Of a stretch of DNA of 64,000 bases, positions 1 to 15,181 are shown piece after piece. The translations under genes were made by a program, and so were the position numbers. The notes under the pieces were generated by a model. That model had not been told where the DNA came from, ran no database searches, and was given only the letters and a program-made list of their open reading frames with translations. Origin of the DNA: an uncultured Gammaproteobacteria bacterium (GTDB lineage: Bacteria > Patescibacteriota > Microgenomatia > UBA8517); NCBI GenBank assembly GCA_964430475.1, contig CAYSEQ010000001.1, positions 13,659-77,658 of the forward strand, given 5' to 3'. Positions within the stretch are counted from its first letter, which is position 1; each line of letters begins with the position of its first letter.

Positions 1-873
1 TCCCGATTGATCAATCCTTATGTCAAATTTGCCATAGTCGTACATTTTGGTTACATCGAAAGCCTTTTTAACATATTCTTTTAGTATTGGATCTTCATAT
101 TTTCCGTAGTGGAAACTGGTATACCCTTCACTGATCCATTGGTCCTCAAAAGTGGCGAATAAATATTTTTTATCTTTTTTTTGAAAAATTTTCTCTGCTA
201 GATAGACTTTTTTGTTTAATCCTTCAAGAAGTATTGCCGTAATTTCTCTTCCAACAATAAATTCTTCAACTATTACAGGTTGTTTATAGGTTTTTATTAA
301 GAATTTTAACCTTTCCCGAAGGTGTTTTTCATTTTCTGAGACAGCATTCTCAGTTATCTCAACAGCTCCGTGTACTTCATTTAATTTGGAAATCAGAGGA
401 AATCTAAGGGTAGGGTCAAGATAGTCACTTGGTGTATTAAATAGTTGGTAATTTGGTACTGGTATCCCGTTTTGTTGAAGAAGTTTTTTGACAATGAATT
501 TATTGCCGTCTATTGACATTCCCAAAACATCCGCGCCTGTGTAAGGAATTTCCAAAAGTTCCAAAACGCCTGGGACAACTGATGATAAACTCTCGCTTCC
601 TTTAACCGAATCAACGAGATTAAGAACCATATCAGGTTTACCTTTTTTAAGTTTCTCAGTCAAAGAGGAATTTCCAGGATAAAGGACGGTTTTGATATTC
701 ATTTTCCTAAGATAATTTGAAATGGTTTCGGCATCCCTTTTGGCGTCTTTTTCAGTTATGTATTGAGCCTCCGTGGGGAAGTATTCGCGTTTAACATCGC
801 TATAGATTATTCCTACCTTTTCAGGCAAGCCGTTTAGAACTTTTGAATTCTTATCTTTGACTTTTAGTTGCAT
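1..873 (-). CDS. ATP-grasp enzyme, D-alanine--D-alanine ligase family (N-terminal part; 3' end lies outside the window)
   Basis: Manual translation of the minus strand from the ATG at 873 gives MQLKVKDKNSKVLNGLPEKVGIIYSDVKREYF...SVVPGVLELLEIPYTGADVLGMSIDGNKFIVKKLLQQNGIPVPNY...EEFIVGREITAILLEG. The EDG..QG.LE...IPY.G and EEFI.GRE motifs are typical of Ddl. It is absent from the ORF track because there is no stop in the window. Confidence 0.55.
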   Translation of the reverse strand, partial: MQLKVKDKNSKVLNGLPEKVGIIYSDVKREYFPTEAQYITEKDAKRDAETISNYLRKMNIKTVLYPGNSSLTEKLKKGKPDMVLNLVDSVKGSESLSSVVPGVLELLEIPYTGADVLGMSIDGNKFIVKKLLQQNGIPVPNYQLFNTPSDYLDPTLRFPLISKLNEVHGAVEITENAVSENEKHLRERLKFLIKTYKQPVIVEEFIVGREITAILLEGLNKKVYLAEKIFQKKDKKYLFATFEDQWISEGYTSFHYGKYEDPILKEYVKKAFDVTKMYDYGKFDIRIDQSG

Positions 874-981
874 ATTTTTTAAATTCAAAAGTAAGAAATT
901 TTTATTGAAAAGTCAATTAGAGAAGTGATTTGTAAGTAAAATTTTGTTAAAATAAGCGGGAATTCAAAAAATCGTTGTCTT

Positions 982-1055
982 GCCCCTGTAGCTCAATTGG
1001 ACAGAGCAGGTCGGTTCTAACGACACGGTTGGGGGTTCGACTCCCTCCAGGGGCA
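982..1055 (+). tRNA. tRNA-Arg (anticodon TCT)
   Basis: Cloverleaf folded by hand. Acceptor is GCCCCTG/CAGGGGC, D-stem GCTC/GAGC, anticodon loop GTTCTAA, T-arm GGGGG-TTCGACT-CCCTC, discriminator A. Confidence 0.8.
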
Positions 1056-1282
1056 CAAAGCTGTTGTAGATGTTGGCGGTAGTATGTGTATGGAGGCTTA
1101 GGAAAGTTTCTGATTAAAAATTATGGATTCAATGGCGAAGAACTTGTAGAAGTTTGGAATTTATCGGATGGTTGCGGAGGGAGTGGAGAACATATTCATT
1201 AAAGGATTTTAAATCTCACAAGTCACAAAAGTTGAAACTTGGTTAATATTCACGCGCAATATTAAAAAATACAAAAAAGATA

Positions 1283-1733
1283 TTGGAGAAAATACATAGA
1301 GAAACAATTAATCGTACTATGAAAATTTATTTTTCAGGTTCAATTAGGGGTGGGCGTGATGACCAAAAACTTTATGTTAAGATTATTGGTTTGCTTAGTA
1401 AGTACGGTGAGGTTTTGACAAAACACATTGGAGATAAAAATTTGTCTGCCTTGGGGGAGAGTTATTTGACAGATGAAGTATTTACGAACGCGATATAGGT
1501 TGGCTTAACGAAGCTGATGTTGTGATTGCTGAGGTAACAATGCCGAGCTTGGGTGTTGGTTATGAGATTGGAAAAATCGAAGGAAAAAAGCCGATACTTT
1601 GCCTTTATCGAAAGCAAAGAAGTAAAAGATTATCCGCTGTGTGATTGCTGGAAATAAAAATTTGAAATTAAAGGTGTACAAGAATATGTATGAGCTTAAA
1701 AGAATTATTAAAAACTTTTTTACGAATTTATAA
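1283..1733 (+). pseudogene. 2'-deoxynucleoside 5'-phosphate N-hydrolase (DNPH1/Rcl)-like gene split into three reading frames
   Basis: Segment 1 reads MKIYFSGSIRGGRDD...GEVLTKHIGD. Segment 2 (another frame) reads [54 protein letters not shown]. Segment 3 (third frame) reads [31 protein letters not shown]. The three together match the DNPH1 fold end to end. The shifts sit next to a G5 run (~1452-1456) and a gtgtg dinucleotide repeat (~1636-1644). Confidence 0.55.
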
Positions 1734-1740
1734 AAAACTT

Positions 1741-2905
1741 TGACCTTATTATTATCGGCGGTGGGGCAGGAGCGTTCGCGGCAGCAATCCGAGCCAATGT
1801 GCTTGATGCAAAAACCACTCTTGTCAATAAGGGACTACCTCTTGGTGGCACATGCGTCAATGTTGGGGTGTGTTCCGTCAAAAACGCTTTTCTATGCCGG
1901 CGAGGTATTACAACGGGCGTTATACCACGGGGTTCCTGGTATTGAACATGAGGTGAAAAAATTTGATTTTCAAAAAGTTGTGCAAGATGAATTCTTACTT
2001 GTAGAAAAATTACGGAAAGAGAAGTATGAGAAAGTACTAACAGATTTAGAAAATGTAACCTTTATTGAAGGGGATGGGCAAAATTAGTGTCTCAAAATGA
2101 AGTTGAGATTAATTCGGAATAAAACAGTCAAGTGTATAGGATTCAAGGCGAGAAATTTATTATTACCACAAGTTCTAACGCTAATATCCTACCGATTGAG
2201 AATATCCGTGATGTTGGTTACCTGACTCACATAGAAGCCCTGAAACTTGAAAGACGGCCAAAAAATTGATAGTTGTAGGTGCAGGACCCTTGGGCTTGGA
2301 ATTTGCTTGAGATGTTCTCGCACTTTGGTCAAAAGTAATAATTTTACAGCGCGGCGATTCAATTCTTTCCCGTTTAGAAAAAGAGCTTACCAACAGACTT
2401 ACTGAAATACTTATTAAGGAAGGTATCATTATCAAAGCTAATGTTGAAGTAAAAAGTGCCAGCAAGGATAGTGACAAAAAGGTTATTTCCTATTCAATAG
2501 GCGGAGTACAAGAGGAAGTTTACGCGGATGAGATACTTTTGGTGGCTGGCAAAACGCCAAATACTCAAGGCCTTGGTCTTACCAAGGATGAGCAAATGAA
2601 GCAAATGGGTGTGTGCCTGCCGTACGCTTTCTTTTGAGGGTGTGCCTAAAGCAATTATTATGCGAGCTACTTTTGGACTTATCAAAATGTCGGTTCATCC
2701 TCAAACAAAGCAAATTTTAGGTGTCCACATTCTTGCGCCAAATGCTGGTGAAATTATTACCGAGGCGATGATGTTAATGAAAAATAAAAACACGATTGAT
2801 GATGTTGTAAATTCCCTGCCGGTATTTCTGACGCTATCTGAGGCAATAAAGCTTGTTGCTCTCTCATTTATTAAAGACATTTCTAAATTAAGTTGTTGCA
2901 TATAA
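1741..2905 (+). pseudogene. merA: Mercuric reductase merA remnant with multiple frameshifts and in-frame stops, and no start codon
   Basis: [42 protein letters not shown] then a frameshift at a G4 tract, then [13 protein letters not shown]... Downstream fragments are in other frames: GYLTHIEALKLERRPKKLIVVGAGPLGLEFA*DVLALWSKVIILQRGD...LLVAGKTPNTQGLGL...HPQTKQILGVHILAPNAGEIITEAMMLMKNKNTIDDVVNSLP...KLSCCI*. It has the redox CxxxxC and the C-terminal vicinal CC that are hallmarks of MerA. At least five lesions are present. Confidence 0.7.
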
Positions 2906-2913
2906 ATAAAAAT

Positions 2914-3272
2914 ATGAAAAACGACGACAGGATATTTCTTTAAATCGGGATTACGAGTGCCTTTCTCGCATCGCTTTGCTGTCTAGGATCTCTTATTCTT
3001 ATTGAACTTGGATTAGGCAGCGCTTCAAGCTTTCTTTCTATCGGGTACAACAAACCATATTTTCTAATCGGTACACTTATTTTTTTGCAGCTACTTCTTG
3101 GCTTTATTTTAGAAAAAAAAGAATGCAGTTTGTGATTGCGAGGATGGCTCGGAAAAACTCGCAAGTAAAAAGATGGCGGGTACAGATTGCCATCGCTTTT
3201 TTTACAATGCTCACGCTTTATTTTTTTTCTGACATTTGTACTCGTATCATTTCTTGCGCCATTAGTTTATAG
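2914..3272 (+). pseudogene. merT: Mercuric ion transporter merT-like remnant (in-frame TAA at 2941-2943 plus downstream frameshifts)
   Basis: MKNDDRIFL*IGITSAFLASLCCLGSLILIELGLGSASSFLSIGYNKPYFLIGTLIFLQ aligns to the MerT TM1 Cys-pair motif (LASACCLGPLVLIALG). The C-terminal TM helix IAIAFFTMLTLYFF continues in another frame. Confidence 0.5.
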
Positions 3273-3288
3273 ATATCTTTACTAGCCT

Positions 3289-3697
3289 ATGAACAAAACT
3301 TTTATTTTTGTACTAGTCGCTCTAGTGTTCGTTGGTAGCATTGTCTTTCGTCTAGCAACTCATAACACCAACTCCACCAATACAAAGCAAATGATGAAGT
3401 TAGACAACTTGCGTCATGCAACACTTAAGATTGACGGTATGGATTGTGTCTCCTGTGCTTACAATATAGAAAATGCTCTTAAGGATACACCTGGTATCGT
3501 AAATGTTTCGGTTGGGTTTGTTGGGGAGAAAGTAGTAAGCGGAACTGGCGAGGGACGAGGTTATTTACGATTCTACAAAAACAACCTCGGATAAAATAAT
3601 CTCAAAAATTTTACCTTACAAGGGAACACTCCTAACCGAACAAAACACCAATAATAGTGTGGAGCTTACGCCACTTCCTAAAACATTTGGTTTTTAA
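3289..3697 (+). pseudogene. merP: merP-like periplasmic heavy-metal-binding (HMA) protein, frameshifted near 3540-3560
   Basis: Signal/TM segment then LKIDGMDCVSCAYNIENALKDTPGIVNVSVGFVGEKVV (GMxCxxC). The rest of the HMA fold, VIYDSTKTTSDKIISKILPYKGTLLTEQ, continues in the +1 frame to a stop at ~3697. Confidence 0.5.
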
Positions 3698-3743
3698 CTT
3701 TCTTGTAAAAGGCCTTGAAAATTTTTAATAAATAAAAAAAGGA

Positions 3744-4838
3744 TCATATAAATTTTACTTGCATTCCTTCTAGCACTTTTGTGTTTAGAGAAACCTCCTG
3801 ACCAGGAAATTTAGCTCCATCCCCCCAGATTTTCGCGCCTTTCGTGTTAGCAAATTTCGGACCTAGTTTTAGTGTTATGTCGTACAATGTTTGTCCTTTT
3901 TGCATGATTATTGGGTTGTCAAAATTTGGTTTTTCATTTCTTTCTACAAGATATGCTCTAACAAGTCCTATTTTTTCCCAAACTTTTTCTTTAAGTTCGG
4001 AAATTCCTATCCCCTTTTCCGCGCTAATCAGGATAACGGGTTCGCCATTAATAAAAGAGAGATTTTCGTTTGAATTTTTTAATAGAGGTTGTAAATCAAT
4101 TTTGTTGATAGCATAAATCGCAGGTAAATAAGCCCTATTTTCGGAAAAAGAATCTATTAGGCGTTCAGTACTTATCTTTTCATTTATAAAAATTTCAGCA
4201 TTTTTCAGACCCGATTCCTGGGCTATCTTTATTATTGTCTCTTTCTTAAGTTCTTGCTCAAAATTTGAATGGATTATTATTCCTCCCCTAGCTTTCTTTT
4301 TGATCAAAACTTTTGGTCGCACAATATTAAGGCGTATTCCATTATCTTCTAATGATTTTTTAATACTTTGAAAAGCGTGTATTCTTTGTACATCAGTTAG
4401 TAAAATTATTAAATCCGCTCCTCTTGCAACTGATAGGACCTCGCGTCCTCTCCCCCTTCCTTCTTCTGCTTTCTCAATAAGTCCAGGGACATCTAAAATC
4501 TGGATCTGAGCATCTTTATATTCCATTATTCCTGGGATTACAGAGACTGTAGTAAAGGCGTAGGGCGCGACTTTGGATTTGGCATTGGTCAGTTTGTTGA
4601 AAAGTGTGGATTTTCCTGAAGAGGGAGGACCGATTAAAACAACTGTTGCATCACCTTGTTTTTTTACCGCATATCCTCCTCCACCCCCTCCTTTTTTAAA
4701 CGATTGTTCAAGAAGTTTGTCTTTTAATCTTGAAAGTCTTGCCCGTAGCAAGCCTATATGATGTTCTGTACCTTTGTGATAGGGAGTTTCTCTTATTTCT
4801 TTTTGGATTGCTTCAATTTCGTCTTGAATATTAACCAT
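3744..4838 (-). CDS. OBG-type GTPase of the DRG family (TGS domain)
   Basis: 364 aa. N-terminal ETPYHKGTEHHIGLLRARL, Gly-rich KKGGGGGGY, P-loop GPPSSGKSTLFNKLT, and a C-terminal TGS-like segment. Confidence 0.8.
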   Translation of the reverse strand: MVNIQDEIEAIQKEIRETPYHKGTEHHIGLLRARLSRLKDKLLEQSFKKGGGGGGYAVKKQGDATVVLIGPPSSGKSTLFNKLTNAKSKVAPYAFTTVSVIPGIMEYKDAQIQILDVPGLIEKAEEGRGRGREVLSVARGADLIILLTDVQRIHAFQSIKKSLEDNGIRLNIVRPKVLIKKKARGGIIIHSNFEQELKKETIIKIAQESGLKNAEIFINEKISTERLIDSFSENRAYLPAIYAINKIDLQPLLKNSNENLSFINGEPVILISAEKGIGISELKEKVWEKIGLVRAYLVERNEKPNFDNPIIMQKGQTLYDITLKLGPKFANTKGAKIWGDGAKFPGQEVSLNTKVLEGMQVKFI

Positions 4839-4932
4839 ACAATGAGATTATAATCTATAGGCTCTAAGTGGTAAAATTTTTGAGTGTGATTAATGTTAAC
4901 TAGCAATGAAGGTCTAAAAGATCTAGCTTCTA

Positions 4933-5736
4933 TCAAACTCTTCTTAGATAAAGATTAATTACTTTTCTGAAAGAAGCATTTAATTCACTTAGACTTCCAC
5001 CTCTTGATAAAATGTCTAGGATGCTTTGAGTTATTTGACTGGCATTTTCATTAAACACTAAGCCTTGAACGATTCTCAAAGGAGGGGGGAATAAATTAAA
5101 TTCAATAAAAAAGGGAGGTTTTCCTGAAAGTTTTGATCTTAAAAGATTATCCCATTTGCCGTTGGTATCTGGTATTTGAATATCTGGACCTAATGGGTAG
5201 GCTATGAAGAACTTATCCCCTTTAAATGTAATCAGAGGGTTAAGATCGGTTCCTTAAGAAGAAGTGTTTACGGCAAGCATTATTGGAGATTTATGTGTTG
5301 GTGAAGCAATGCTTAGAAAAAAACGCTTTGATAAATCGAGGGGACCTCCTTCTTTAAATAAATCTATAGGTGGTAAAAATCCAGGTGAAATTTGTGATAA
5401 TACTTTCTTTGAATTTTCGAAATCTTTTTCAACTCCTTTAAAAATTTGTGCTCCCAATAAAACATGATAGTGTGTTATTTTATCGTCCTCTTTCCACATC
5501 ATAATATTACAAGTTCCGAGTTCTTCAGATTTATAATCAAAATGTGGGGTTTCCTTTCCAGTGATAATAACTTGCTGAGGTTGGTAAGAAGATGGTCTGA
5601 ATTCAACAACATCACGTTCATTAATTTCAAGATCACCTGAGATTATCGGTAACTGGAAGTAAGGTGTTGCAGCGTCTAGTGAAATTTGCGTTCGGAAAAA
5701 CGGTACGAAATTATAACAATCTTTCTCCTTTGACAT
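4933..5736 (-). pseudogene. Hypothetical protein interrupted by an in-frame TAA (plus coordinates 5254-5256)
   Basis: The 160-aa ORF ends ...MLAVNTSS*. The same frame stays open for 106 further codons (GTDLNPLITFKGDKFFIAYPLGPDIQIPDTNGKWDNLLRSK...NLYLRRV) to a TGA at 4933-4935. No family recognised. Confidence 0.4.
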
Positions 5737-5881
5737 AGGTGCATATTATTAACGAGGCTTACTCTACTTGTCAAGTTTTTGTACGGGTCACATACCTTAG
5801 CCTGATTTTGTCCGAACTGATGCTATTTCTCATCTTAAATGGGAAATATTTGGTTTTCTACTAAACTTGCTTTCCTTGCTG

Positions 5882-5954
5882 TGCACCCAGCAGGATTTGA
5901 ACCTGCAACCTCCTGTTCCGAAGACAGGCGCTCTGTCCATTAAGCTATGGGTGC
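5882..5954 (-). tRNA. tRNA-Arg (anticodon TCG)
   Basis: Reverse complement is GCACCCATAGCTTAATGGACAGAGCGCCTGTCTTCGGAACAGGAGGTTGCAGGTTCAAATCCTGCTGGGTGCA. It folds as a canonical cloverleaf with anticodon loop CTTCGGA. Confidence 0.8.
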
Positions 5955-6099
5955 TTGGTTTAATTATTTTTTTACCCTGTGTTTATTTTACACTTGTCGG
6001 TGAAATTTTTAAAGCTTCTCTAAGAAGAAGTGTTGAAAGTTTTGATTTTTTCTTAAAAAGGTTATATAGTTTATTTATTATCGGCTTTTTTGTTGGGGT

Positions 6100-6861
6100 G
6101 TGAAAGAGAAAGAGATAGGCCAAGATTTTTTGAAAGAGCTTCTCTTAAAGGAGCAGGATCTTTTCGGGCTGGGTAATTGGAAGATCCCATGTTCGTGGGC
6201 AAGTCCGGATGATATACAAAGGTTAAAAAATGAAGAAGCCACAGCTGCGATTTTTGTAGAACCACCTAACCTTGCTACAATCCTCCTTGATCCAACGATT
6301 CCTGAACAAAGACTTCTTAGGACAATTGATCACGAACTTGCCCACCTTTTTCTTAATACTGGTTACTCAAGTCCAACAGGCAAGGCTTTAGAACATACTC
6401 AAGCTTGTCATATTGATTTTGCTATAGATGAGTTAAGGAGAAACCCCGATAAGTACAGAGTTAAAAGTGATGATTTAGCCTGTATCTGTGAAAAATCTGG
6501 AAAATTGACAAGACTTTGGGGTGATGAGGAGGGTGTTGCAAACAATTGGAGAATTATCACTGAGGAGAAAGAAGATATTTTAGTAGACGGTATACGTTCC
6601 CCTGTGTTTATCATGAATCAGTATTGCGAATCTAGACGGCATCTTGGTGGATTGTGTGCAAGACAAGCAATACTTTATGTAGATAAGAATTATTTAGAAG
6701 CATTAGGAGGAGATTTACCCTACTTCGTCCTAAAGGAAATGTGGTGGATAGTTTTGTCACCTTATCAAGGTAAAAGGTTTGCTGCCCATGAAGTTAAAAT
6801 AAACAAGATTATGGAGATTATGCAGAGTTTAGGTTGGAAAAAAGGGCAACTTTATGATTGA
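6100..6861 (+). CDS. HExxH-motif protein, putative zinc metallopeptidase (ImmA/IrrE-like)
   Basis: 253 aa with TIDHELAHLFLNTG. Its stop overlaps the start of the next gene by 8 nt. Confidence 0.4.
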   Translation: MKEKEIGQDFLKELLLKEQDLFGLGNWKIPCSWASPDDIQRLKNEEATAAIFVEPPNLATILLDPTIPEQRLLRTIDHELAHLFLNTGYSSPTGKALEHTQACHIDFAIDELRRNPDKYRVKSDDLACICEKSGKLTRLWGDEEGVANNWRIITEEKEDILVDGIRSPVFIMNQYCESRRHLGGLCARQAILYVDKNYLEALGGDLPYFVLKEMWWIVLSPYQGKRFAAHEVKINKIMEIMQSLGWKKGQLYD

Positions 6862-7639
6862 AAGAGAAACTGCAACACCCTTTGTGGATTCTTTAAGACA
6901 TAGAGGAGAAAGAGAAGCGGTAGGAGGTTTGGCTGAAAGAATTATAATAAAAAAATTATTAAATGATGAAGCAAGGGGGAAGGCATGTGGATGTCCTAAA
7001 TGTTTGAGAATGGCGGATTGGAGTCATGAGATGCTTGAAGGACTGTTAGGTAGGGAAGTACAGAAAGAAAATTTGAAAAGTCAGTTAAGAGATTGGAACC
7101 CCGAAGATTTCGAATATCGTCCAATAGAAAAATTAAGGTCGTACAAGCAAAAGGAAGCTTGTGGGCCTTCCGCACTCAAGATTGTTTATGAAGGCTTTGA
7201 TATCTATTTAAAAGAAGAAGAAATAATTGAGTCAATGGGTTCAATTTTATCTTATTTACCAGAAGAGGATACGGGTAACTGGTGGGAATTTGTTCAGGCT
7301 CACCCTAAGATGGAATCCTTTAAGGTCATTTTTAAAGAAGAGTCAGATTTATCGGATATATCTACCTGTCTTAGTCTGGGACTTCCGGTTATTGTAACAT
7401 GGAAATCTATTGCCGACCCTGAGGATAACTCTCATTTTGGCGTTATTTATGGACTTGATAGGTTTCATATCAACTTGATCGACCCAACTATTGGGGCGTT
7501 TATTACTGTTAAGAAAGAGGATTTTCTTGATCGTTGGCAGAAAGATGATGAGGGTTATATCCGGCCTATGATGGTAATTTATCCGATTGCTCCAAGTTCA
7601 AGCACTCCTGGAAATACCCCCTCCCTTTCAAAAGTTTAG
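6854..7639 (+). CDS. C39-like papain-fold cysteine peptidase domain protein
   Basis: 261 aa. Cys motif QKEACGPSALKIV, His motif NSHFGVIYGLD, Asp motif INLIDPTIG, in the order of the C39 catalytic triad. N-terminal CGCPKC. Confidence 0.45.
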   Translation: MIERETATPFVDSLRHRGEREAVGGLAERIIIKKLLNDEARGKACGCPKCLRMADWSHEMLEGLLGREVQKENLKSQLRDWNPEDFEYRPIEKLRSYKQKEACGPSALKIVYEGFDIYLKEEEIIESMGSILSYLPEEDTGNWWEFVQAHPKMESFKVIFKEESDLSDISTCLSLGLPVIVTWKSIADPEDNSHFGVIYGLDRFHINLIDPTIGAFITVKKEDFLDRWQKDDEGYIRPMMVIYPIAPSSSTPGNTPSLSKV

Positions 7640-7673
7640 GGGATCAAAATTTGTGATTTTGGTTAGAATGGAG

Positions 7674-8072
7674 TTATGCCAGTTTGTAGTTTTTTAAAAT
7701 TTGCCACAATCCCCATTGGATTGTATTCATTACTAAACCCAGAATTATTGCCCAAAAAAATCTTGAAATGCCGAATCCCGAAAATTCAGCTACCCTTGCG
7801 AGAATCCATATCGTAATCGAATTTGAAGCCCAATAGAATATGAAATTTTGCGCTTCACCTTCAAGTTTTAATCCAATTTGGGTGATTACGGGTTTGGAAA
7901 ACCAAACGATAAAAGTAAGCCAAGCTCCTACCCAGAGAAAAGCCAAGTTTTCCGGTATAGTCGCGCTACCCAATTCGAAATTCCTCGGAAGAATTAAACT
8001 TGAAAGGTAAAATATCGTGGAATTTGCCAGCCAAAATATTATGTATGGAATGTATCTTTTAACCTCTTGCAT
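7674..8072 (-). CDS. Hypothetical integral membrane protein
   Basis: 132 aa with 4 predicted TM helices. Confidence 0.35.
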   Translation of the reverse strand: MQEVKRYIPYIIFWLANSTIFYLSSLILPRNFELGSATIPENLAFLWVGAWLTFIVWFSKPVITQIGLKLEGEAQNFIFYWASNSITIWILARVAEFSGFGISRFFWAIILGLVMNTIQWGLWQILKNYKLA

Positions 8073-8180
8073 TCTTTTTGAGTGTCTTTATTTTTAAGCT
8101 TATGATTAAATTAGATTTTTGTCAATATTATGAGATGATGATGATTAAGAAATTCCAAATTCCAAACAAATTCAAGATAC

Positions 8181-8240
8181 AAAATTCTAAATTCTTAATT
8201 CTTAATTCTAGATTCTATATTTTTGATTCTTGGTTCTAAA
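8181..8240. repeat. Partial inverted copy of the AT-rich intergenic repeat family (aattcttaattcttaattctagattc)
   Basis: Reverse-complement similarity to the gaatctagaatcaagaa...aagaatcaagaattt arm of the repeats at 13285 and 35610. Confidence 0.4.
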
Positions 8241-8416
8241 ATTTTTAACTTTTAACTTTGAACTTTTAAATTTTTTTATAGGATCGAAAGCTATATTTGC
8301 GCCTATAATATTTGTGAAAATGTGGGCATTTATGTTTAAAAGGTATTAAACTTATAAAACTAAAATATTGTTAGTGAGGAATTGACGAGTTTGTAGTAAA
8401 ATACATCATAATAAAC

Positions 8417-8506
8417 GCCGAGGTGGCGGAATAGGTAGACGCCCGGGCCTTAAGAGCCCGTGTTGCAACTAGCAACGTGTGGGTTCGAGTCCCACCCTCG
8501 GCACCA
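8417..8506 (+). tRNA. tRNA-Leu (anticodon TAA), type II with long variable arm, CCA encoded
   Basis: GCCGAGG...CGGGC-CTTAAGA-GCCCG...variable arm TGTTGCAACTAGCAACG...GTGGG-TTCGAGT-CCCAC-CCTCGGC-A-CCA. Confidence 0.8.
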
Positions 8507-8710
8507 AAACCCGCAAAAATTTTTCTTTCATTTTCTTTTAGGAAGCGCGCGCAAAATCCGCCGAAGGCGGACAAAAAGGTAAGAAAATTTTTGTGGGTTT
8601 TGTTCTGCGCTAAACGCGCAGGCGGAGCCGCTCCCTCCCTCACCGCGCCTTCGGCGCGGAAACAGACGGGCAAAAAGGAAGGGGGTCTGGGGGAAGGAAT
8701 TTTTGCCCGC

Positions 8711-8753
8711 CTGCTTGGATTTAACTCTGAAAAATTGGAGCGGAGGCGGAACA
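8711..8753. repeat. Left 43-bp inverted repeat bounding the arsenic cassette
   Basis: ctgcttggatttaactctgaaaaattggagcggaggcggaaca. Its reverse complement at 12054-12096 is identical except for 2 mismatches. Confidence 0.7.
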
Positions 8754-8825
8754 CATTAAAAAGTCGTCCTTGCCCCACCACATCCGTGCGCAGGCGACAA
8801 CAAGGAACTCCCCAAAATCTTACGA

Positions 8826-9074
8826 TTAACCGCAACACCCTCCGCCCGGATTGCAACCGCCAGCACGGCTTCGTAAATTCTTGACATAGTTGTCGAAATC
8901 AAAACTCTCCTTTTTTGTCGAACTCGTTTGCCTAAACTCGTCGCATTCAGAACCGCATTCGGAACATTTTGCCACGCGCTTCCAGCACGGGCCGTAAATG
9001 GAACTTGTATATTCCCGTTTTAGTCCCTCAGCTTCAAAAACCTTTTGACACTTTTGGCAATAGAATTTGTCCAT
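8826..9074 (-). CDS. FmdB-like CxxC...CxxC zinc-ribbon protein with a Gly/Cys tail (…GGCNPGGGCCG)
   Basis: Likely start is the ATG at 9074 (MDKFYCQKCQKVFEAEG...CSECGSEC...), 4 nt after the stop of the upstream gene. The longer ORF-track start at 9161 would overlap the upstream gene. Confidence 0.45.
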   Translation of the reverse strand: MDKFYCQKCQKVFEAEGLKREYTSSIYGPCWKRVAKCSECGSECDEFRQTSSTKKESFDFDNYVKNLRSRAGGCNPGGGCCG

Positions 9075-9078
9075 ATTT

Positions 9079-9438
9079 TTAGCCGCAACATCCGCCGCCG
9101 CCCGCAAAAGGCACGCCGGTAATGGCGGTAAGCTGATTACAAATTTTGCGCGCCAGAGCAACAGCGGTATTTTGTGCTCTTAAATATTCCATGCAAATTT
9201 CATTTTGTCTCATTTTTGCCTGCGCGTCGCGAAGTTCTTGCTGTTGTTCAATGGAAACCGGCAGGCCGTTTTGCTGTAAAATCGCAATAGTTTGTATTCG
9301 TTCTTGAACATCCTGAAACACATTCAATGCGCTTTTATCATTTTCCAGTTTTTCAGCCGCTTTTTGGAATCTGATAAACTCCGGCGTCTGCTTAATATAA
9401 TCGCTGAACTCTTTAATTTTTTGATCTAAATTGTTCAT
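9079..9438 (-). CDS. YheA/YmcA/YlbF-like (UPF0342) helical protein with the same Gly/Cys tail (…FAGGGGCCG)
   Basis: 119 aa. IKQTPEFIRFQKAAEKLENDKSALNVFQDVQERIQTIAILQQNG...EYLRAQNTAVALARKI is the YheA-like pattern. Confidence 0.45.
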   Translation of the reverse strand: MNNLDQKIKEFSDYIKQTPEFIRFQKAAEKLENDKSALNVFQDVQERIQTIAILQQNGLPVSIEQQQELRDAQAKMRQNEICMEYLRAQNTAVALARKICNQLTAITGVPFAGGGGCCG

Positions 9439-9470
9439 AGTGTGTTGATTGAATTATGGCTTTTTCTTTA

Positions 9471-11333
9471 TTATTGTTTTCCATAAAGCATATAACCAGC
9501 AATTTTTAGTTTCTCTTTTCCGATCAAGTCATCGACCAAAAGCGGTAATTTTACAATCGGCGCAGTGAACCTTTTATCCATTTCCGCAAGATATTTTTCC
9601 TCCATCGCCTTTCTTTGTCTTAAATAATCGTTGGTTATTATGGATTGCGGCAAAATAAAGTTTGCCACCACCAAGCTTGTGGGGACGCCGATGGTTAAAA
9701 GCTCTTCCATAGCGCGAGCCGCCTCTTCAATTGGCGTGGACTCCGGATACATCACAAAACTGAAAGTTGTTTGATTGATGTCTTGCATCATATCAATTAC
9801 TTCCTTAAAACGCGACTTGGTTATTTTATCAACCTCTGTTTCGCCGGTTGAAGTAAAAGTTTTGATCTCTATCTGTTTACTCCAATCAACCGGCAGCTCC
9901 AATAACCGCAAGGTGTGGCCGGTCGGGGCAGTGTCAAAGATAATTACTTCAAAATCTTTACGAGTCGCGAAATCAATAAATTTTTCAAAAGTAGCCATTT
10001 CTTCAGTGCAGGGTGAATCAAGTTCTTCTTCAATCGCGGATACTCTTTGTTTGTCATATTTTTGTCTTGCTTCTGACAAAATTTTTTCTTTGTATTCTTC
10101 GGTCGCCTTCTTGGTATCAATGTTGGCTGCCCATAAATTTGTTTCTCCATTTACTGCCGTCGGCTCGCCTGAAATTTCTTGCTCGAAGACCTGATTTAAG
10201 TGAGAGGCCGGATCAGTTGTTAAAATCAGAGTTTTGTATTTTTGTTCTGCCACCCAAATGCTGGTTGCCGCCGCAACCGAGGTTTTGCCTACACCGCCCT
10301 TGCCCGCAAAGAAGATCGCCCGTCTTTTTCCATTTTGGGGGACAAGCAGCTGTTTTATTCTTTCGTCTATTTTGGGGAAATTATTCCTTATTATCTTTGC
10401 TTTATCCACATCAACTTTTAACGGCTGATAGTCGCTTAATTTTAGGGCTTGTTCGTGAAGCTTTTTGCCTGTTTGAAGTAGTAGTTTTTTACCTTTGATT
10501 TCATTCGGCTCTAGCTCCATCAAGGTTATGGGAACGGAAAACTTGTTTTTGATAAGTTCCAAAAATTTCTGCTGTTTGGCAAAGCGAGCGAGCATAAAAG
10601 GATTATCGCAAGCACTTTTTGGATAAATGCCGTTGATAATGAGCTCTTGCGAGTTTATTTTGAGTTTCAAAAGTTCGGCGATTGAACGTTCCGCTTCATA
10701 AATAGGCGTAACTTCCGGGCGCAGGACAAAAACAAAAGTGGTTCTGGAAGTATCGCGCATTGCCGCAATCGCTTGGTCAAATTTAGCCTTTGACTCAGCT
10801 AGCGCGGCTGCCGGACCGATGCAGGTTTGGCCGCCGCCTTCTTCTTTGGCGGCTTTTTCAATAACCCCGCTCCACTCTACGGGTAGTTTCAAAAGCCGCA
10901 GCGTATGTCCAGTTGGCGCAGTGTCAAAAATGACTATGTCGTATTCCGGTTCTTGCAAAAAATCAGTAAAGCGGTCAAAGGCGGCCATTTCGGCGGTGCA
11001 GGGCGAATTTAGTTGTTCTTCTAAAACTTTAAAACTTTCAATCGGAATTAAGCCGCGCAGAGGAGATAAAGTTCGCTCTTTGTACTCGGCAGTGGCAATA
11101 TCCGGGTCAAGTTCCATGGCAAATAAATTTTTTATGCCATAGATTGGAGTAATTTTGTGTCCTATTTTTTGTTCAAACACATCGGCGAGATTTGACGCAG
11201 GGTCAGTGGTAATAATAAGCGTTTTCTTGTTTTGGCTTGCAAAATAAGCCGCACTGAAAGCGGCCATCGTGGTTTTTCCAACGCCGCCTTTGCCTGAAAA
11301 GAAATAAAATTTTGTGTTCATATTATTTTTCAT
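9471..11333 (-). CDS. arsA: Arsenical pump-driving ATPase ArsA (tandem A1-A2 halves)
   Basis: Two P-loops GKGGVGKTT/GKGGVGKTS and two DTAPTGHTLRLL motifs. Metalloid-site Cys motifs SPCTAEMAAFDRF and SPCTEEMATFEKF. Start taken at the internal MKNNMNTKFYFF; the track's 5' extension overlaps arsD. Confidence 0.9.
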   Translation of the reverse strand: MKNNMNTKFYFFSGKGGVGKTTMAAFSAAYFASQNKKTLIITTDPASNLADVFEQKIGHKITPIYGIKNLFAMELDPDIATAEYKERTLSPLRGLIPIESFKVLEEQLNSPCTAEMAAFDRFTDFLQEPEYDIVIFDTAPTGHTLRLLKLPVEWSGVIEKAAKEEGGGQTCIGPAAALAESKAKFDQAIAAMRDTSRTTFVFVLRPEVTPIYEAERSIAELLKLKINSQELIINGIYPKSACDNPFMLARFAKQQKFLELIKNKFSVPITLMELEPNEIKGKKLLLQTGKKLHEQALKLSDYQPLKVDVDKAKIIRNNFPKIDERIKQLLVPQNGKRRAIFFAGKGGVGKTSVAAATSIWVAEQKYKTLILTTDPASHLNQVFEQEISGEPTAVNGETNLWAANIDTKKATEEYKEKILSEARQKYDKQRVSAIEEELDSPCTEEMATFEKFIDFATRKDFEVIIFDTAPTGHTLRLLELPVDWSKQIEIKTFTSTGETEVDKITKSRFKEVIDMMQDINQTTFSFVMYPESTPIEEAARAMEELLTIGVPTSLVVANFILPQSIITNDYLRQRKAMEEKYLAEMDKRFTAPIVKLPLLVDDLIGKEKLKIAGYMLYGKQ

Positions 11334-11631
11334 TGATAAATTTCTTAAGCTCTTCGAGCGTGGGGTATGAGCCGGTTTTAACGACTTTTCCGTCACAAGT
11401 AGTAATTGGCAATGCTTTCAGCTGTTGTTCTTGGATTAGTTTTATTACATCCGGGTTTTCCTTGAATTTTTGAGGACTTTGAGTAATGAGCCACCGTTCG
11501 ACTTCCACGCCTAACTTTTTGACTTTTTCCAATGTATCCTGCAAATTGATAAGCGTTTGATCCGGGTTCGGCCCGCAGACGCCGGTTGAACAGCACATCG
11601 GAGGATCATAGATAACGATTTTATTTTTCAT
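11323..11631 (-). CDS. arsD: Arsenic metallochaperone / repressor ArsD
   Basis: MKNKIVIYDPPMCCSTGVCGPNPDQ, the ArsD CCxxGxCG motif. 102 aa. Confidence 0.85.
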   Translation of the reverse strand: MKNKIVIYDPPMCCSTGVCGPNPDQTLINLQDTLEKVKKLGVEVERWLITQSPQKFKENPDVIKLIQEQQLKALPITTCDGKVVKTGSYPTLEELKKFINEK

Positions 11632-11965
11632 AATTTTTGGTTAACTGACGACAAACATCATGCGAAGTGCATGGTTTATCGGAAATATTGTTAGAATTTA
11701 AAATTTTTTGGTACAAACTCTCCAACTCTTCAAATTTTTTCTTATTCAAGGAGCAATGCACCCACCTCCCGACCTTTCTGTCTTTGATAAGCCCGGCTTC
11801 TCGCAATGTCTGCAAATGATGGGACACGAGTGTTTGTTCCAAACCCAATTTTTCCGCCAGTACGCAAACGCATTCTTCGCCCCTCATTAAACACAGAACG
11901 ATCTTGTATCTGTTCTTGTCAGATAAAATTCTTATGTAGTTGAGTAATTTTTCGTTTTCCTTCAT
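11621..11965 (-). CDS. arsR: ArsR/SmtB-family metalloregulator
   Basis: HTH with the ECVCVL metal-sensing motif. Overlaps arsD by 11 nt. Confidence 0.85.
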   Translation of the reverse strand: MKENEKLLNYIRILSDKNRYKIVLCLMRGEECVCVLAEKLGLEQTLVSHHLQTLREAGLIKDRKVGRWVHCSLNKKKFEELESLYQKILNSNNISDKPCTSHDVCRQLTKNYEK

Positions 11966-11980
11966 TTTAATTGCTATCTG

Positions 11981-12010
11981 TTAATATGTGAATCCACATT
12001 CATATATTAA
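11981..12010. promoter_or_regulatory. Candidate ArsR operator: 8-bp inverted repeat TTAATATG-N14-CATATTAA upstream of arsR
   Basis: The palindrome sits 16-45 bp upstream of the arsR start codon. Confidence 0.4.
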
Positions 12011-12053
12011 TCCTTGCCGCAATCAATGTCAAGTGGATTTTTCTTTAAACTTT

Positions 12054-12096
12054 TGTTCCGCCCCCGCTCCAATTTTTCAGAGTTAAATCCGAGCAG
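12054..12096. repeat. Right 43-bp inverted repeat bounding the arsenic cassette
   Basis: Reverse complement of 8711-8753 (ctgctcggatttaactctgaaaaattggagcgggggcggaaca). Confidence 0.7.
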
Positions 12097-12224
12097 CGGA
12101 GCCGCGGGGTGGGTCATTCCGCGAGCGAAGCGAGCGGCAATCTTCCAATTTTCAGGAATTTTCGGTAAAATAAGTTCGAGCTTGGTTGTATAGATACACA
12201 TAAGATTAGTCACTTTATTTGATC

Positions 12225-12297
12225 CGGGGTGTGGCTCAGCTGGTAGAGCGCACGGTTTGGGACCGTGAGGTCCCCGGTTCGAATCCGGGCACCCCGA
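12225..12297 (+). tRNA. tRNA-Pro (anticodon TGG)
   Basis: CGGGGTG...CACGG-TTTGGGA-CCGTG...CCCGG-TTCGAAT-CCGGG-CACCCCG-A. Confidence 0.8.
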
Positions 12298-12507
12298 CAC
12301 ACAACAAAAGGAAATTTAAATTTTATTCTTTATTCTTTATTCTTTATAATAAGAGATTCTGAATTAGACAAAGAGAGATTTGAATCCTCGTATTCCAAGA
12401 CCCAAGCTTTATTCAGATGTTCAGATTTTTGGATCTAAAGATAGAGTTCAAGGCCAAAAGAGAGGAAGATTTTAGTCATTTTCTAATTTAAAAAGTTTTT
12501 TGTTTTT

Positions 12508-13128
12508 TTACCGCGTAAATAAGCCTCTGAAGATTAGGTTTATATTTTGCCAAACTTTGTTTATCATATTTGAGCTTCTTAAGTCTTGAATCCCTAATGT
12601 GTTTGAAAATGAAGTTATCGGTGGGGTGACTGATGGAGCTATTCCCTCAACCTTGACACTTAATGTATCAGTTGCCGCCTGATTTTCCCGCCATTCTACT
12701 CTGACTAAGGCTTGGTATAGTCCTTCATTTTTGTAGTCACATATATCTTTCACAGAGTAAGTAGTAAAGAGGGTAATTTTTTCGTGTTCATATTGACCAT
12801 TGCTTTCACAATCAAACCTATAGCGAATTAAACCTGGACCCCTAATTCCAACTTTGGCAAGTAGGTCAACACCTGTTAGCGGTGCTTGCCCTGATATTCC
12901 ATTTGAATTCCAGGAATCCTGAGAACTTACTCTTCCAAGGAGAAGAACTCTGCCTTCAATAATTTTAGAACTTTCATTTTGTTTTGCTTCAGGGAAAGCA
13001 ACCAGTAGCCTTTGCCTATTCTTAACTAAGGACAAAGTTGTCGCAAGCGTTGTGGTAAAAAGAATTACGGCTAGTAAGCCAAAGATTACGCCTAAATGCA
13101 CAATTCCATTATTGTGTTGATGTTTCAC
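12508..13128 (-). CDS. Hypothetical membrane-anchored secreted protein
   Basis: 206 aa with an N-terminal TM helix. No family recognised. Confidence 0.35.
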   Translation of the reverse strand: MKHQHNNGIVHLGVIFGLLAVILFTTTLATTLSLVKNRQRLLVAFPEAKQNESSKIIEGRVLLLGRVSSQDSWNSNGISGQAPLTGVDLLAKVGIRGPGLIRYRFDCESNGQYEHEKITLFTTYSVKDICDYKNEGLYQALVRVEWRENQAATDTLSVKVEGIAPSVTPPITSFSNTLGIQDLRSSNMINKVWQNINLIFRGLFTR

Positions 13129-13284
13129 TCTAAATTTATTCTAATTAGATTTTTTTAAAAAGTCTATAGCATCTTGGACTTTGTGCTTTTAAGGTGGCAC
13201 CGACCTGAAAATCAAAGCTTGAAAAATCAAAAAAAGTGACAAACAAATTCATTTTTAGGAATTAGGAGTTGGTATTTTGGGATT

Positions 13285-13445
13285 AGAATCTAGAATCAAG
13301 AAGCAAGAAGTAAGAATCAAGAATTTTTAATCATTAATCATTTTTTTATAATTTTGGATTTTGAAAATTTGAATTTGTTTAGGATTTAGAATTTAGGATT
13401 TGGAATTTTTCTAGGATTTAGCTTGTCTGCCGACTAGACAAAAAA
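13285..13445. repeat. AT-rich intergenic repeat element, copy A, in a divergent promoter region
   Basis: aagaatcaagaatttttaatcattaatca...ttggattttgaaaatttgaatttgtttaggatttag...ttctaggatttagcttgtctgccgactagacaa. About 115-150 nt are near-identical to 35610-35760. Contains the hairpin TTGTCT-N7-AGACAA. Confidence 0.6.
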
Positions 13446-13556
13446 TTTAGAGATTAGAATTTAACACTTAGGATTTTGAGTTTCAAACTTTACTTATAAG
13501 TTATACCGTCTCAGTTGAGAAATATGCTTTATTTCATCTTAAACTCATAAATATAT

Positions 13557-14006
13557 TTGACAACTGGATTCTGGTGCCCTATAATACGAGCCTGTATGAA
13601 AAGAAAGTTGATTGTCTTTATTTTATTTTTGGCTGTTTTGGTATTCCTAAATTTTGCTCAACTTAATTTTCTTAAAGTTGAAGCAAAAAGTAATTTTCCT
13701 TTAACAGGGCCGATTACCCAACCTGTTACATACTTTATTAGAGGGTTCGTATTTTAAAGAGCCTTTGGATGGATAAGGCCTGCTAGTGGTGCGAAGGTTC
13801 AAGCTACTAATTTAGTGACCCATGAGCAAATTGCTACAGAAGTTTCCCAAAATGGAAGCTACGCGTTAGGGATTAATAAACCCGGTTTTTACAAAGTTAA
13901 AGCATACGATACGCGTGGGACTATTTTTAGACCTTTATTAAGATTCGTACGGATAAATGACCAAGATGTCAACGGAATAAACTTCTTTGGTATTTGGGTA
14001 AGATAA
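13557..14006 (+). pseudogene. Carboxypeptidase-regulatory-like domain protein interrupted by an in-frame TAA (13755-13757)
   Basis: ORFs 13557..13757 and 13815..14006 are in the same frame and separated only by the TAA. The joined sequence ...PITQPVTYFIRGFVF*RAFGWIRPASGAKVQATNLVTHEQ...YALGINKPGFYKVKAYDTRG fits the G.V.D..G.P..GA.V...G.Y.L...PG.Y.V pattern. Confidence 0.4.
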
Positions 14007-14096: not shown

Positions 14097-15181
14097 GTGT
14101 TGAGATTATTGATTTCACTTCTTATCTTTTGGCTTCCTTTGGTTATTTTTCCTTTTGGAACTTCGCCTTTTGAAATTCCTAAGGTCATTGTTGCCCAGGT
14201 ATCAATAGAGGTTCTTTTTTTGGCATGGCTTTATAAAAAAAGATGGAACTTTAAAAAGATTTTTGATCTTGAAAAACTTCCCTTTCAGGGCTTGATTATT
14301 TTAAGCCTAATCCATCTTATCTTCTTGGGGAGGGAGACATCATTTTTTGGAAATATTTTCCGATTACAAGGTATTTTTTTACTTTGGCACCTTATTCTAT
14401 TCTCCTATATTTCTAGTTCAATAAAAATTTACCAAGGTAAGAAATTTATTTTTATTCCTGCTATTCTTCTTTCAATATTGAGTTTTGTTTTTAGTGTTGA
14501 TAAGGCGGGAAGGTTTATGTTGTCTCTGGGAGAACCTAATGCCTTTGCTTCTGTGTTGGTTTTTTCTACCCATTTTTACTCTTCACACTTAAACGCCAAA
14601 AATCAAAAATCTGGAAAATTATTTTATTTTTGTGGATATTTACCCTTATTCTTTTTTCGGGCTCACGATCTGGGTTGATTGCGTTTTTATTGGAGAACTT
14701 GTTCTTTGCCATCACTCATAAATATAAACTTGGAGTTAGAAGCGCTAGTATTTTGATAATGATTCTACTTTTTACTAGCCTTTTTTTGCCTTTGATTCAA
14801 AAGAAAAAGATTTGGGAAAATAGGACTGAAATTTGGAGTACAGCACTTGCTGCGGGATTAGAAAGACCAATCTTGGGCTGGGGTTTTGGGAATGTGGAAT
14901 TTGCTCTTAGAGAAACTTCTTTTTTACTAAAAAATAATCTTCGCTTTCAGTATGTTGATAGTAGCCATAATCTGATTTTAGATTATTGGGTCCAGGGAGG
15001 AATTGTTGGTGTTATCTTGATTTTATATCTTATTTTTCTTACATTTAAGAAATTTATCTCAAAAAAAGATAGGCTGAGTTTAGGGGTTTTCTTTGGGGTC
15101 TTAACAGTGCTACAATTTAATCCTGTAAGTGTTGTTACATCGATACATTTCTGGTGGCTTATTGGGAAGATGTTTAGGTAA
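14097..15181 (+). pseudogene. O-antigen ligase family (Wzy_C/WaaL-like) membrane protein, frameshifted near 14600-14630
   Basis: Two overlapping ORFs in different frames. The second carries the signature GSRSGLIAFLL...HNLILDYWVQGGIVGVIL. The shift lies in an A-rich stretch (aaaaatcaaaaatctggaaaa). Confidence 0.5.

Follow-up and report, generated by a model that had tools for sequence, protein, structure and literature searches.

Within the window, a stretch of 64,000 nucleotides, four consecutive genes on the same strand are broken (1319-3697, +): a DNPH1/Rcl-like gene, merA, merT and merP. This block is very probably the non-functional and long-decayed remnant of a merA-merT-merP operon of the Patescibacteria (CPR) type that has lost its regulator, together with an adjoining upstream DNPH1-like gene; in this Woesebacteria-like genome it is flanked by a tRNA-Arg(TCT) gene on one side and by a GTPase gene on the other. 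It is an ordinary case of an accessory operon that is no longer needed and is eroding in a small CPR genome. The GTPase gene is convergent with merP and was used as anchor for taxonomy and synteny, its best named relatives being Woesebacteria. The initial annotation had described all four genes as broken, and all of them, with nearly all the lesions described, were found where it had placed them; of the span that it gave (1283-3697) the end is correct, and the first gene starts at the ATG at 1319 and not at the TTG at 1283.

Table 1. Coordinates of the decayed block, its flanking genes and the ars genes in the window. L002 and L003 are the Logan contigs SRR22387958_628236 and SRR27730024_32401, respectively.
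Feature	Position	Strand	Support	Remark
tRNA-Arg(TCT), intact	982..1056	+	ARAGORN; Rfam tRNA 59 bits	upstream boundary of decayed block
DNPH1/Rcl-like (Nuc_deoxyrib_tr family) pseudogene	1319..1733	+	Pfam PF05014 46.9 bits	
merA (mercuric reductase) pseudogene	1730..2905	+	TIGR02053 352.7 bits, E 3e-105	
merT pseudogene	2914..3285	+	68.6-69.4% identical to 123-aa MerT of L002/L003	
merP-like (membrane-anchored HMA domain) pseudogene	3289..3697	+	Pfam HMA (PF00403) 36.9 bits, cut-off 24.8	
DRG/Obg-like ribosome-binding GTPase, intact	3744..4838	-	Pfam MMR_HSR1, MMR_HSR1_Xtn, TGS	downstream boundary
arsR-arsD-arsA	9471-11965	-		GC 0.42-0.46, higher than host window

A frameshift-aware alignment against intact relatives has revealed 17 lesions in one contiguous block of 2.4 kb: 13 frameshifts, two in-frame TAA codons, the loss of the merA start codon (ATG to ATA) and an internal merA deletion of 246 nt. 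According to these lesion maps, the DNPH1-like, merA, merT and merP genes carry 2, 9, 5 and 1 lesions versus 3.0, 8.4, 2.7 and 2.9 expected from their lengths, a density that is statistically uniform (chi-square 3.7, 3 df). The rest of the window contains intact ORFs of up to 1173 aa, with an ORF coverage of about 88%, so the broken block exceeds what would be expected by chance. In the approximately 70 kb of available sequence, none of the four genes was found a second time. The frame-corrected translations also matched family profiles, namely TIGR02053 and the Pfam families Pyr_redox_2, Pyr_redox_dim, MerT, HMA and Nuc_deoxyrib_tr.

For the frame-corrected translation of merA, NCBIfam TIGR02053 was the best of 43 families, followed by lipoamide dehydrogenase (224.9 bits); the score remains under the curated cut-off (454.45) because 82 residues have been deleted. 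In frameshift-aware alignment this translation was 77% identical to protein P0012 over 382 aligned residues, and the relatives are annotated as mercury(II) reductase. The start codon is lost at 1730-1732, the frame is shifted at six positions (1865, in a G4 run, 2076, 2261, 2308, 2330 and 2611), a TAA lies in frame at 2120, and the deletion of 82 codons at about 2575 has eliminated residues 276-357, including the AVGDVT FAD motif, with a junction flanked by two G(L/V)G(L/F) codon blocks that resemble each other. The redox CxxxxC motif ([13 protein letters not shown]) is present, although split by the frameshift at 1865, and the C-terminal CC is retained, the reading ending in SKLSCCI. The absent start, the G4 frameshift, the further shifts and both cysteine motifs had been recognized initially, but the in-frame TGA also claimed (2308-2310) is more readily taken as the by-product of two nearby shifts, one of +1 at 2308 and one at 2330 that compensates for it; reading through both restores EMFSHFG, versus the conserved QMFSRFG. 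With no start, six frameshifts, one stop and the deletion, no intact frame is left for the FAD-, NAD(P)H- and dimerisation domains. Judged from its sequence, merA is a pseudogene of the MerA family and not a working member, and the changes at invariant residues and the loss of the FAD-binding segment indicate that no mercuric reductase would be made from it.

Relaxed constraint was analysed in merA and in the DNPH1-like gene (see below); for merT and merP only two close homologues were available. The window copy of merA has accumulated 44-59 lineage-specific amino-acid changes versus 10-26 in intact relatives (Tajima relative-rate test, p 6e-8 to 6e-3), a 3-5 fold excess of replacements, and the same test among intact genes was mostly non-significant (1/8 at p=0.03). 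Among the covered positions that are invariant in 20 intact CPR MerAs, 23 of 198 were changed and 39 more were deleted. The dN to the closest relatives was 0.148-0.166 versus 0.058-0.106 among those relatives; dN/dS on the pseudogene branch was dropped because dS was saturated (>1 or undefined), and was replaced by the relative-rate tests and the counts of invariant sites. At nucleotide sites invariant in six intact genes, merA showed 55 unique changes, distributed over the codon positions as 26/20/9, with 30 GC>AT versus 12 AT>GC changes, whereas in intact genes this ratio was near 1:1 and second-position changes were few. The GC content of merA (39.5%) compares with 43-49% in the intact homologues (donor-like) and 35.5% in the host window. 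merA has been free of constraint in its evolution, with a substitution rate and a pattern that both look neutral. The proposal of an obsolete locus caught in the middle of its erosion, in place and in a streamlined genome, is supported by this replacement excess, by the GC drift and by the recurrence of the lesions in a second assembly (see below).

The DNPH1-like gene retains its ATG and is broken, as initially described, by two frameshifts, a 1-nt deletion at about 1478 and a GT duplication at about 1639. Its PF05014 score is above the cut-off of 28.8, and the reconstructed protein aligns through residues 2-112 with rat Rcl and human DNPH1 at E values of 1e-34 to 1e-30 (1.1e-34 with PDB 2khz Rcl, about 1e-30 with human DNPH1). 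When the two shifts are allowed, it is 71-74% identical to intact CPR proteins of 137-147 aa across the whole length of these, and intact homologues of 137 aa are common in CPR genomes; the window copy differs from them in being broken, and the enzymatic specificity of the CPR members is a prediction. The stop codon overlaps the merA start codon in a shared ATAA, which was presumably ATGA in the ancestor. The relative-rate excess of this gene is small and for the most part falls short of significance, and changes affect only 3 of its 51 highly conserved positions. It may have died later than merA or independently. A conserved association of the two genes was considered and rejected: three homologue contexts showed unrelated neighbourhoods, and among the loci examined both genes occurred only in a Nealsonbacteria contig (L005), about 2.9 kb apart.

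In merT the frame is broken five times, by a TAA at codon 10 (2941), where the relatives have Lys, and by frameshifts at 3079 (T7 run), 3123 (A8 run), 3179 and 3222 (T8 run), in agreement with the in-frame TAA after codon 9 and the later shifts that had been reported; the CC motif of TM1 (LCCLG) and the CDC loop (CDCEDG) are still readable. The profile scores are under the curated cut-offs (Pfam MerT, PF02411, 24.3 bits vs 32.9, E 3e-5; NCBIfam MerT/MerTP, E 1e-7 to 5e-6); the identities in Table 1 were computed with shifts allowed, against L002 and L003 proteins that carry precomputed PF02411 matches. The single merP frameshift that had been noted is located at about 3556 and leaves the HMA fold without its last third but with the metal-binding motif GMDCVSC (GMxCxxC type). 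This gene is 57.6% identical to a 135-aa protein encoded downstream of merT in L002, and it scored only 27.2 against 92.55 for the NCBIfam MerP equivalog, so that it represents an HMA protein with a membrane anchor that occupies the position of MerP, and not the canonical periplasmic MerP.

The mild damage in merP raises the question of a remnant function, either of the 101-aa ORF at 3289-3594 as a truncated metal-binding protein or of the DNA itself in a non-coding role. This ORF keeps its ATG, membrane anchor and metal-binding motif, and the block has been little shortened except for one deletion. However, the ferredoxin-like HMA fold has lost its last helix and strand to the frameshift, a single lesion over 409 nt is consistent with the overall lesion density, promoter and terminator signals were not above those of shuffled controls, and only tRNAs were matched in the search for RNA families in the region. 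A retained function is therefore considered quite improbable.

The closest intact operons, those of L002 and L003, contain an ArsR-type HTH gene, merA, an optional phosphatase gene, merT and merP, and their MerA belongs to a Patescibacteria-dominated cluster. The order merA-merT-merP, initially called non-canonical, is so in relation to Tn21-type operons but is native in these two. The block does not constitute an entire operon as had been stated, because the ArsR-type regulator, whose gene overlaps the merA start in the relatives, is absent; no trace of the L002/L003 HTH and phosphatase genes was detected by tblastn in window positions 1-5000 (E up to 1). Intact mer operons therefore exist in relatives, as the initial annotation had suggested looking for, but an intact syntenic ancestral locus was not found: a scan of genome contigs with the flanking GTPase gave no syntenic relative, the nearest protein found was only 68% identical, and the neighbourhoods of this nearest GTPase and of one other lacked both shared synteny and mer genes. 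The suggested horizontal acquisition is plausible on indirect grounds, MerA being 79-91% identical across many CPR classes versus at most 68% for the core GTPase and its nearest relative. Gene transfer within the CPR, among which near-identical mer cassettes circulate, probably brought the cassette into this genome. The ars genes, considered initially as a newer cassette next to the block, are about 5.8 kb away, with several genes and two tRNAs in between, and their newer age would rest on GC content.

The lack of an intact syntenic relative and the position beside a tRNA gene would also fit the uptake of already broken DNA, for instance by natural transformation, and its integration there with no decay in place. 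Against this, the GC content has covered the greater part of the distance between donor-like and host values and the lineage substitutions are AT-biased like the host, which indicates a long residence in this genome, and the precise ATGA-type junction of the DNPH1-like stop and merA start suggests a once-functional arrangement. Neither the integrase nor the direct repeat of the tRNA 3' end that define a tRNA-associated genomic island was observed: a search of 900-5000 gave no downstream att-like repeat matching the tRNA-Arg 3' end and no recombinase remnant, no meaningful inverted repeats were present at the block boundaries, and other mobile-element traces were likewise not found. We regard this alternative as having little probability, and decay in place remains the preferred reading.

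It is very improbable that the frameshifts and stops arose as errors of sequencing or assembly and that the operon is otherwise intact. About half of the small indels do fall within homopolymers or dinucleotide repeats (G4 at 1865, A6 at 2261, T7 at 3079, A8 at 3123, T8 at 3222, and GT repeats at 1639 and 2611). However, 381 comparable runs (A/T runs of at least 6, G/C runs of at least 4) are located within intact ORFs elsewhere in the window, and Logan contig SRR11582147_1200 (run SRR11582147), a separate assembly whose reads are probably those of the source genome, is 100% identical over window positions 1-13340 (13,340 nt), with every lesion included. Such errors also leave unexplained the start-codon substitution, the two TAA codons, the 246-nt deletion, the 23 invariant-residue changes and the AT-biased substitution excess. 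The lesions are real consensus sequence and not assembly noise, and a minority intact allele may exist in the population. Functional expression through programmed frameshifting, transcriptional slippage or an alternative genetic code, conceivable insofar as some shifts lie in A or T runs where slippage is possible, is effectively refuted by the deletion of 82 codons with the FAD motif, and it is further contradicted by the missing merA start codon, by 13 shifts in both directions with no common slippery motif, by the use of TAA as an ordinary stop in these and the neighbouring genes, by the replaced invariant residues and by intact relatives that need no recoding.

Under the preferred reading of decay in place, the cassette would once have been functional, and after selection for mercury resistance lapsed it would, under a mutation bias towards AT, have collected point mutations, small indels of the slippage type and one deletion by microhomology. 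An excess of about 0.065 per site in non-synonymous divergence would correspond to several percent of neutral divergence since inactivation. As the stop of the DNPH1-like gene shares ATAA with the start of merA, the four genes probably formed one coupled transcription unit and were silenced together. A more specific proposal, that the DNPH1-like gene was translationally coupled to merA in a four-gene unit silenced jointly, which would have tied mercury detoxification to a nucleotide hydrolase of the DNPH1 type, and that the block preserves, as a dated "fossil", the neutral mutation spectrum of a Woesebacterium, is rather unlikely. In the spectrum of the block, small insertions and small deletions are about equally numerous, GC>AT changes outweigh the reverse by about 2.5:1 and a sizeable deletion occurs only once in 2.4 kb; were the proposal true, this small CPR genome would not be kept small by a strong deletion bias.

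The CPR MerA lineage was described by Christakis et al. 2021 (PMC8261052). CPR mer operons consist of an ArsR-type HTH gene, merA (467 aa, no N-terminal HMA domain), an optional phosphatase gene, merT and a membrane-anchored merP. The window block resembles them in gene order, protein lengths, motifs, the lack of an NmerA domain and frame-corrected identities (MerA 77%, MerT 69%, MerP 58%), and differs in that all genes are disrupted, a DNPH1-like gene takes the place of the regulator and merA has lost 82 codons. With the Tn21/Tn501-type merRTP(C)AD operons of Proteobacteria it shares a MerT-family CC transporter, an HMA MerP with GMxCxxC and a MerA with CxxxxC and C-terminal CC, but its order is A-T-P instead of T-P-A, it has neither a MerR-family regulator nor NmerA, and it is non-functional. 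The sequences are also only distantly similar: in a genome scan, non-CPR bacterial and archaeal MerA proteins, mostly marine and halophilic, matched the CPR query at about 36-45%. In Parcubacteria MAGs, about 5-10% of the genes are pseudogenes according to Pseudofinder (PMC11188291), and like these the window retains frameshifted and truncated genes in a very small genome; it differs in that four contiguous genes form one block whose lesion load is unusually high and was mapped lesion by lesion. As both MerA and pseudogenes in CPR have already been published, the feature is real but of low novelty.

The four ORF clusters are best annotated as pseudogenes, where automatic calls give short "hypothetical", "Pyr_redox_dim" and "HMA" proteins. 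Beyond annotation its importance is slight, although so densely mutated a block could be used to sample, on a small scale, the spectrum of neutral mutation in an uncultivated lineage. For the organism, it means that a Woesebacteria-like genome once carried a mercury-resistance cassette that circulates among CPR and is no longer needed.

Three-frame translation of window positions 1250-3720 showed recognisable protein text that jumps between frames; runs from different frames were joined and then scanned against protein families (NCBIfam, Pfam). The second gene matched NCBIfam TIGR02053 (mercury(II) reductase MerA) with 352.7 bits (E 3e-105), below the curated cut-off of 454 and well above all other flavoprotein disulfide reductase families, the runner-up being lipoamide dehydrogenase (224.9 bits); its Pfam matches were Pyr_redox_2, Pyr_redox and Pyr_redox_dim. 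The third and fourth genes matched MerT and HMA, respectively, and the first matched Nuc_deoxyrib_tr and aligned with solved Rcl/DNPH1 structures (E 1e-34). These matches confirm the identities proposed in the initial annotation (DNPH1-like, merA, merT and merP/HMA), and its core reading, a dead mercury-resistance cassette with a dead DNPH1-like gene, is essentially correct and describes a real feature.

Lesions were mapped with a purpose-written frameshift-tolerant protein-to-DNA aligner, using the closest intact homologues as queries. The 2.4 kb hold 13 frameshifts, two nonsense codons, one lost start and one large deletion, and their distribution (2, 9, 5 and 1 in the DNPH1-like gene, merA, merT and the merP-like gene, respectively) showed no departure from the gene-length expectation (chi-square 3.7, 3 df; hand arithmetic). 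In merA, the first codon is ATA instead of the ATG of relatives (MK[TNQK]FDLIIIGGG), the frameshift at 1865 is an additional G within a G run that splits CVNVGC, and the in-frame TAA sits within a variable loop. The deletion removed residues 276-357 of 467, the AVGDVT FAD motif among them, and joined GLGL to TKDEQ; since two similar G(L/V)G(L/F) codon blocks border this segment in intact genes, the loss is as would be expected from microhomology or slippage. In merT, TAA replaces the Lys codon 10. The initial annotation had already recognised two frameshifts in the DNPH1-like gene, one in merP/HMA, the merT stop after codon 9 with later shifts (four by the aligner), and the lost start, G-run frameshift and further shifts of merA, but the in-frame TGA that it placed in merA is better read otherwise: a +1 shift at 2308 with a compensating shift 22 nt on restores EMFSHFG against the conserved QMFSRFG.

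Features of the mer remnant, the ars region and other apparently broken frames (window coordinates)
Feature	Position	Strand	State or content
DNPH1-like gene	1319-1733	plus	ATG kept; frameshifts ~1478, ~1639
merA	1730-2905	plus	first codon ATA; frameshifts 1865, 2076, 2261, 2308, 2330, 2611; TAA 2120; 246-nt loss
merT	2914-3285	plus	TAA 2941; frameshifts 3079, 3123, 3179, 3222
merP-like gene	3289-3697	plus	single frameshift ~3556
Peptidase_C39-like protein	6854-7639	plus	
Holin-family (Phage_holin_4_2) membrane protein	7674-8072	minus	
tRNA-Leu(TAA), then compositionally foreign block	8417-11965		genes intact
Cys-rich small ORF	about 8829-9075	minus	intact; C-terminal GGCNPGGGCCG
arsR, arsD, arsA	9471-11965	minus	intact
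AT-rich degenerate repeat tract	13250-13520		variants of GGATTTAGAATTT
136-codon frame	13596-14006	plus	lone in-frame TAA 13755-13757
Overlapping ORFs	14097-15181	plus	14097-14678 and 14630-15181, different frames

It is very improbable that the frameshifts and stops are sequencing or assembly errors. About half of the small indels do fall in homopolymer or dinucleotide runs, but elsewhere in the window 381 runs of similar length leave the ORFs that contain them intact. A Logan contig from run SRR11582147, found through exact-protein look-up of the neighbouring GTPase, is 100% identical and gapless over window 1-13340, so that every lesion is present in this independent assembly, and errors cannot produce the substitution excess of merA. 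ORFs (up to 1173 aa) cover ~88% of the window. The Logan contig stops at 13340, inside the AT-rich repeat tract, itself part of a 968-nt gap without genes.

The 20 intact MerA proteins compared, of various CPR class labels (one labelled Margulisiibacteriota), were 79-91% identical to one another, and the window copy reached at most 77%. In Tajima tests with four outgroups it carried 44-59 unique amino-acid changes versus 10-26 in five intact relatives (p 6e-8 to 6e-3); when intact genes were tested against each other as controls, the counts were mostly balanced (1/8 at p=0.03). The intact proteins share 237 invariant positions; the window copy covers 198, of which 23 are changed (including G141S, P147L, T197I, R389A, E391F and P443L), and the other 39 are deleted. 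Saturation of dS made dN/dS unusable; dN itself was in excess on the window lineage by ~0.065 per site, whichever outgroup was taken. At sites invariant in six intact genes, the window copy had 55 unique nucleotide changes (26/20/9 by codon position; GC>AT 30 versus AT>GC 12), whereas intact genes had few second-position changes and a near 1:1 ratio. Its GC content of 39.5% falls between that of intact homologues (43-49%) and that of the remaining window (35.5%). Relative rates, invariant-site loss, dN excess, mutation spectrum and GC together indicate a long neutral, AT-biased decay of merA within the present genome. The DNPH1-like gene showed a rate excess in the same direction, mostly non-significant, with 3/51 highly conserved positions changed.

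Intact versions were found in relatives, the two closest mer loci having an ArsR-type HTH, merA, an optional tyrosine-phosphatase-like gene, merT and a membrane-anchored HMA protein. The merA-T-P order, previously described as non-canonical, is therefore native to the clade; the arrangements at other CPR loci are HTH-merF-merA, HTH-merA or merT-merP-merA. An HTH regulator remnant was looked for at the locus and none was present. In one intact operon (Logan contig SRR22387958_628236, 7401-7853), a dual-specificity/tyrosine-phosphatase-like gene (PTP-SAK, DSPc) lies between merA and merT with overlapping stop/start codons; it is not known as a mer component. In the window, the merA start exactly meets the end of the DNPH1-like gene (TTA TAA overlapping ATA AAA), and restoring the ancestral G gives an ATGA stop/start overlap, which suggests that the four genes were formerly one coupled unit. 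In CPR generally, this gene is frequent, without regular linkage of DNPH1-like genes to merA.

The flanking GTPase has its best named relatives in Woesebacteria (nearest non-self relative 68% identical), and no mer genes occur in the GTPase neighbourhoods of relatives. Neither an att repeat nor an integrase trace was found flanking the mer block. Horizontal acquisition, as initially proposed, is plausible though unproven; its main support is the very high identity of MerA across CPR classes relative to core proteins. A CPR MerA lineage was described earlier, with lateral transfer inferred (Christakis et al. 2021, PMC8261052). Another genome, a MAG labelled Acidobacteria (isolate nzgw76), also carries this cassette in decayed form: on one of its contigs, at 1710-2821, a CPR-type merA lacks residues 99-174 and has its halves in different frames, and a merT-like gene lies upstream of it.

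The ars genes lie ~5.8 kb from merP, with several genes and two tRNAs between. Their GC, taken jointly with that of the GC-rich block following tRNA-Leu, is 0.42-0.46 versus 0.355 in the rest of the window, which is compatible with a more recent arrival. The compositionally foreign block (GC 0.42-0.51 versus 0.355) contains the Cys-rich ORF, a Com_YlbF protein, arsA, arsD and arsR; the tRNA was its only Rfam match, and the scanned parts of the window showed no gene for an ArsB/Acr3 pump. A holin-family gene similar to that between the mer remnant and this block lies ~6.3 kb upstream of an intact DNPH1-like gene on another contig.

The 136-codon frame (signal peptide, weak CarboxypepD_reg match, E 0.0025) may be another pseudogene. 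The second overlapping ORF encodes a Wzy_C O-antigen ligase domain (E 3e-16), and as its frame is open already from ~14565, the two ORFs look like a single gene split by one frameshift, in a region outside the independent Logan contig.

In Parcubacteria MAGs, pseudogenes are reported to account for ~5-10% of the genes; in CPR MAGs generally their share is larger in groundwater than in seepage-water (PMC11188291). The mer/DNPH1 remnant is a further instance of a well-known phenomenon, mildly unusual only in the heavy lesion load kept in a compact genome and in the precise DNPH1-merA junction.
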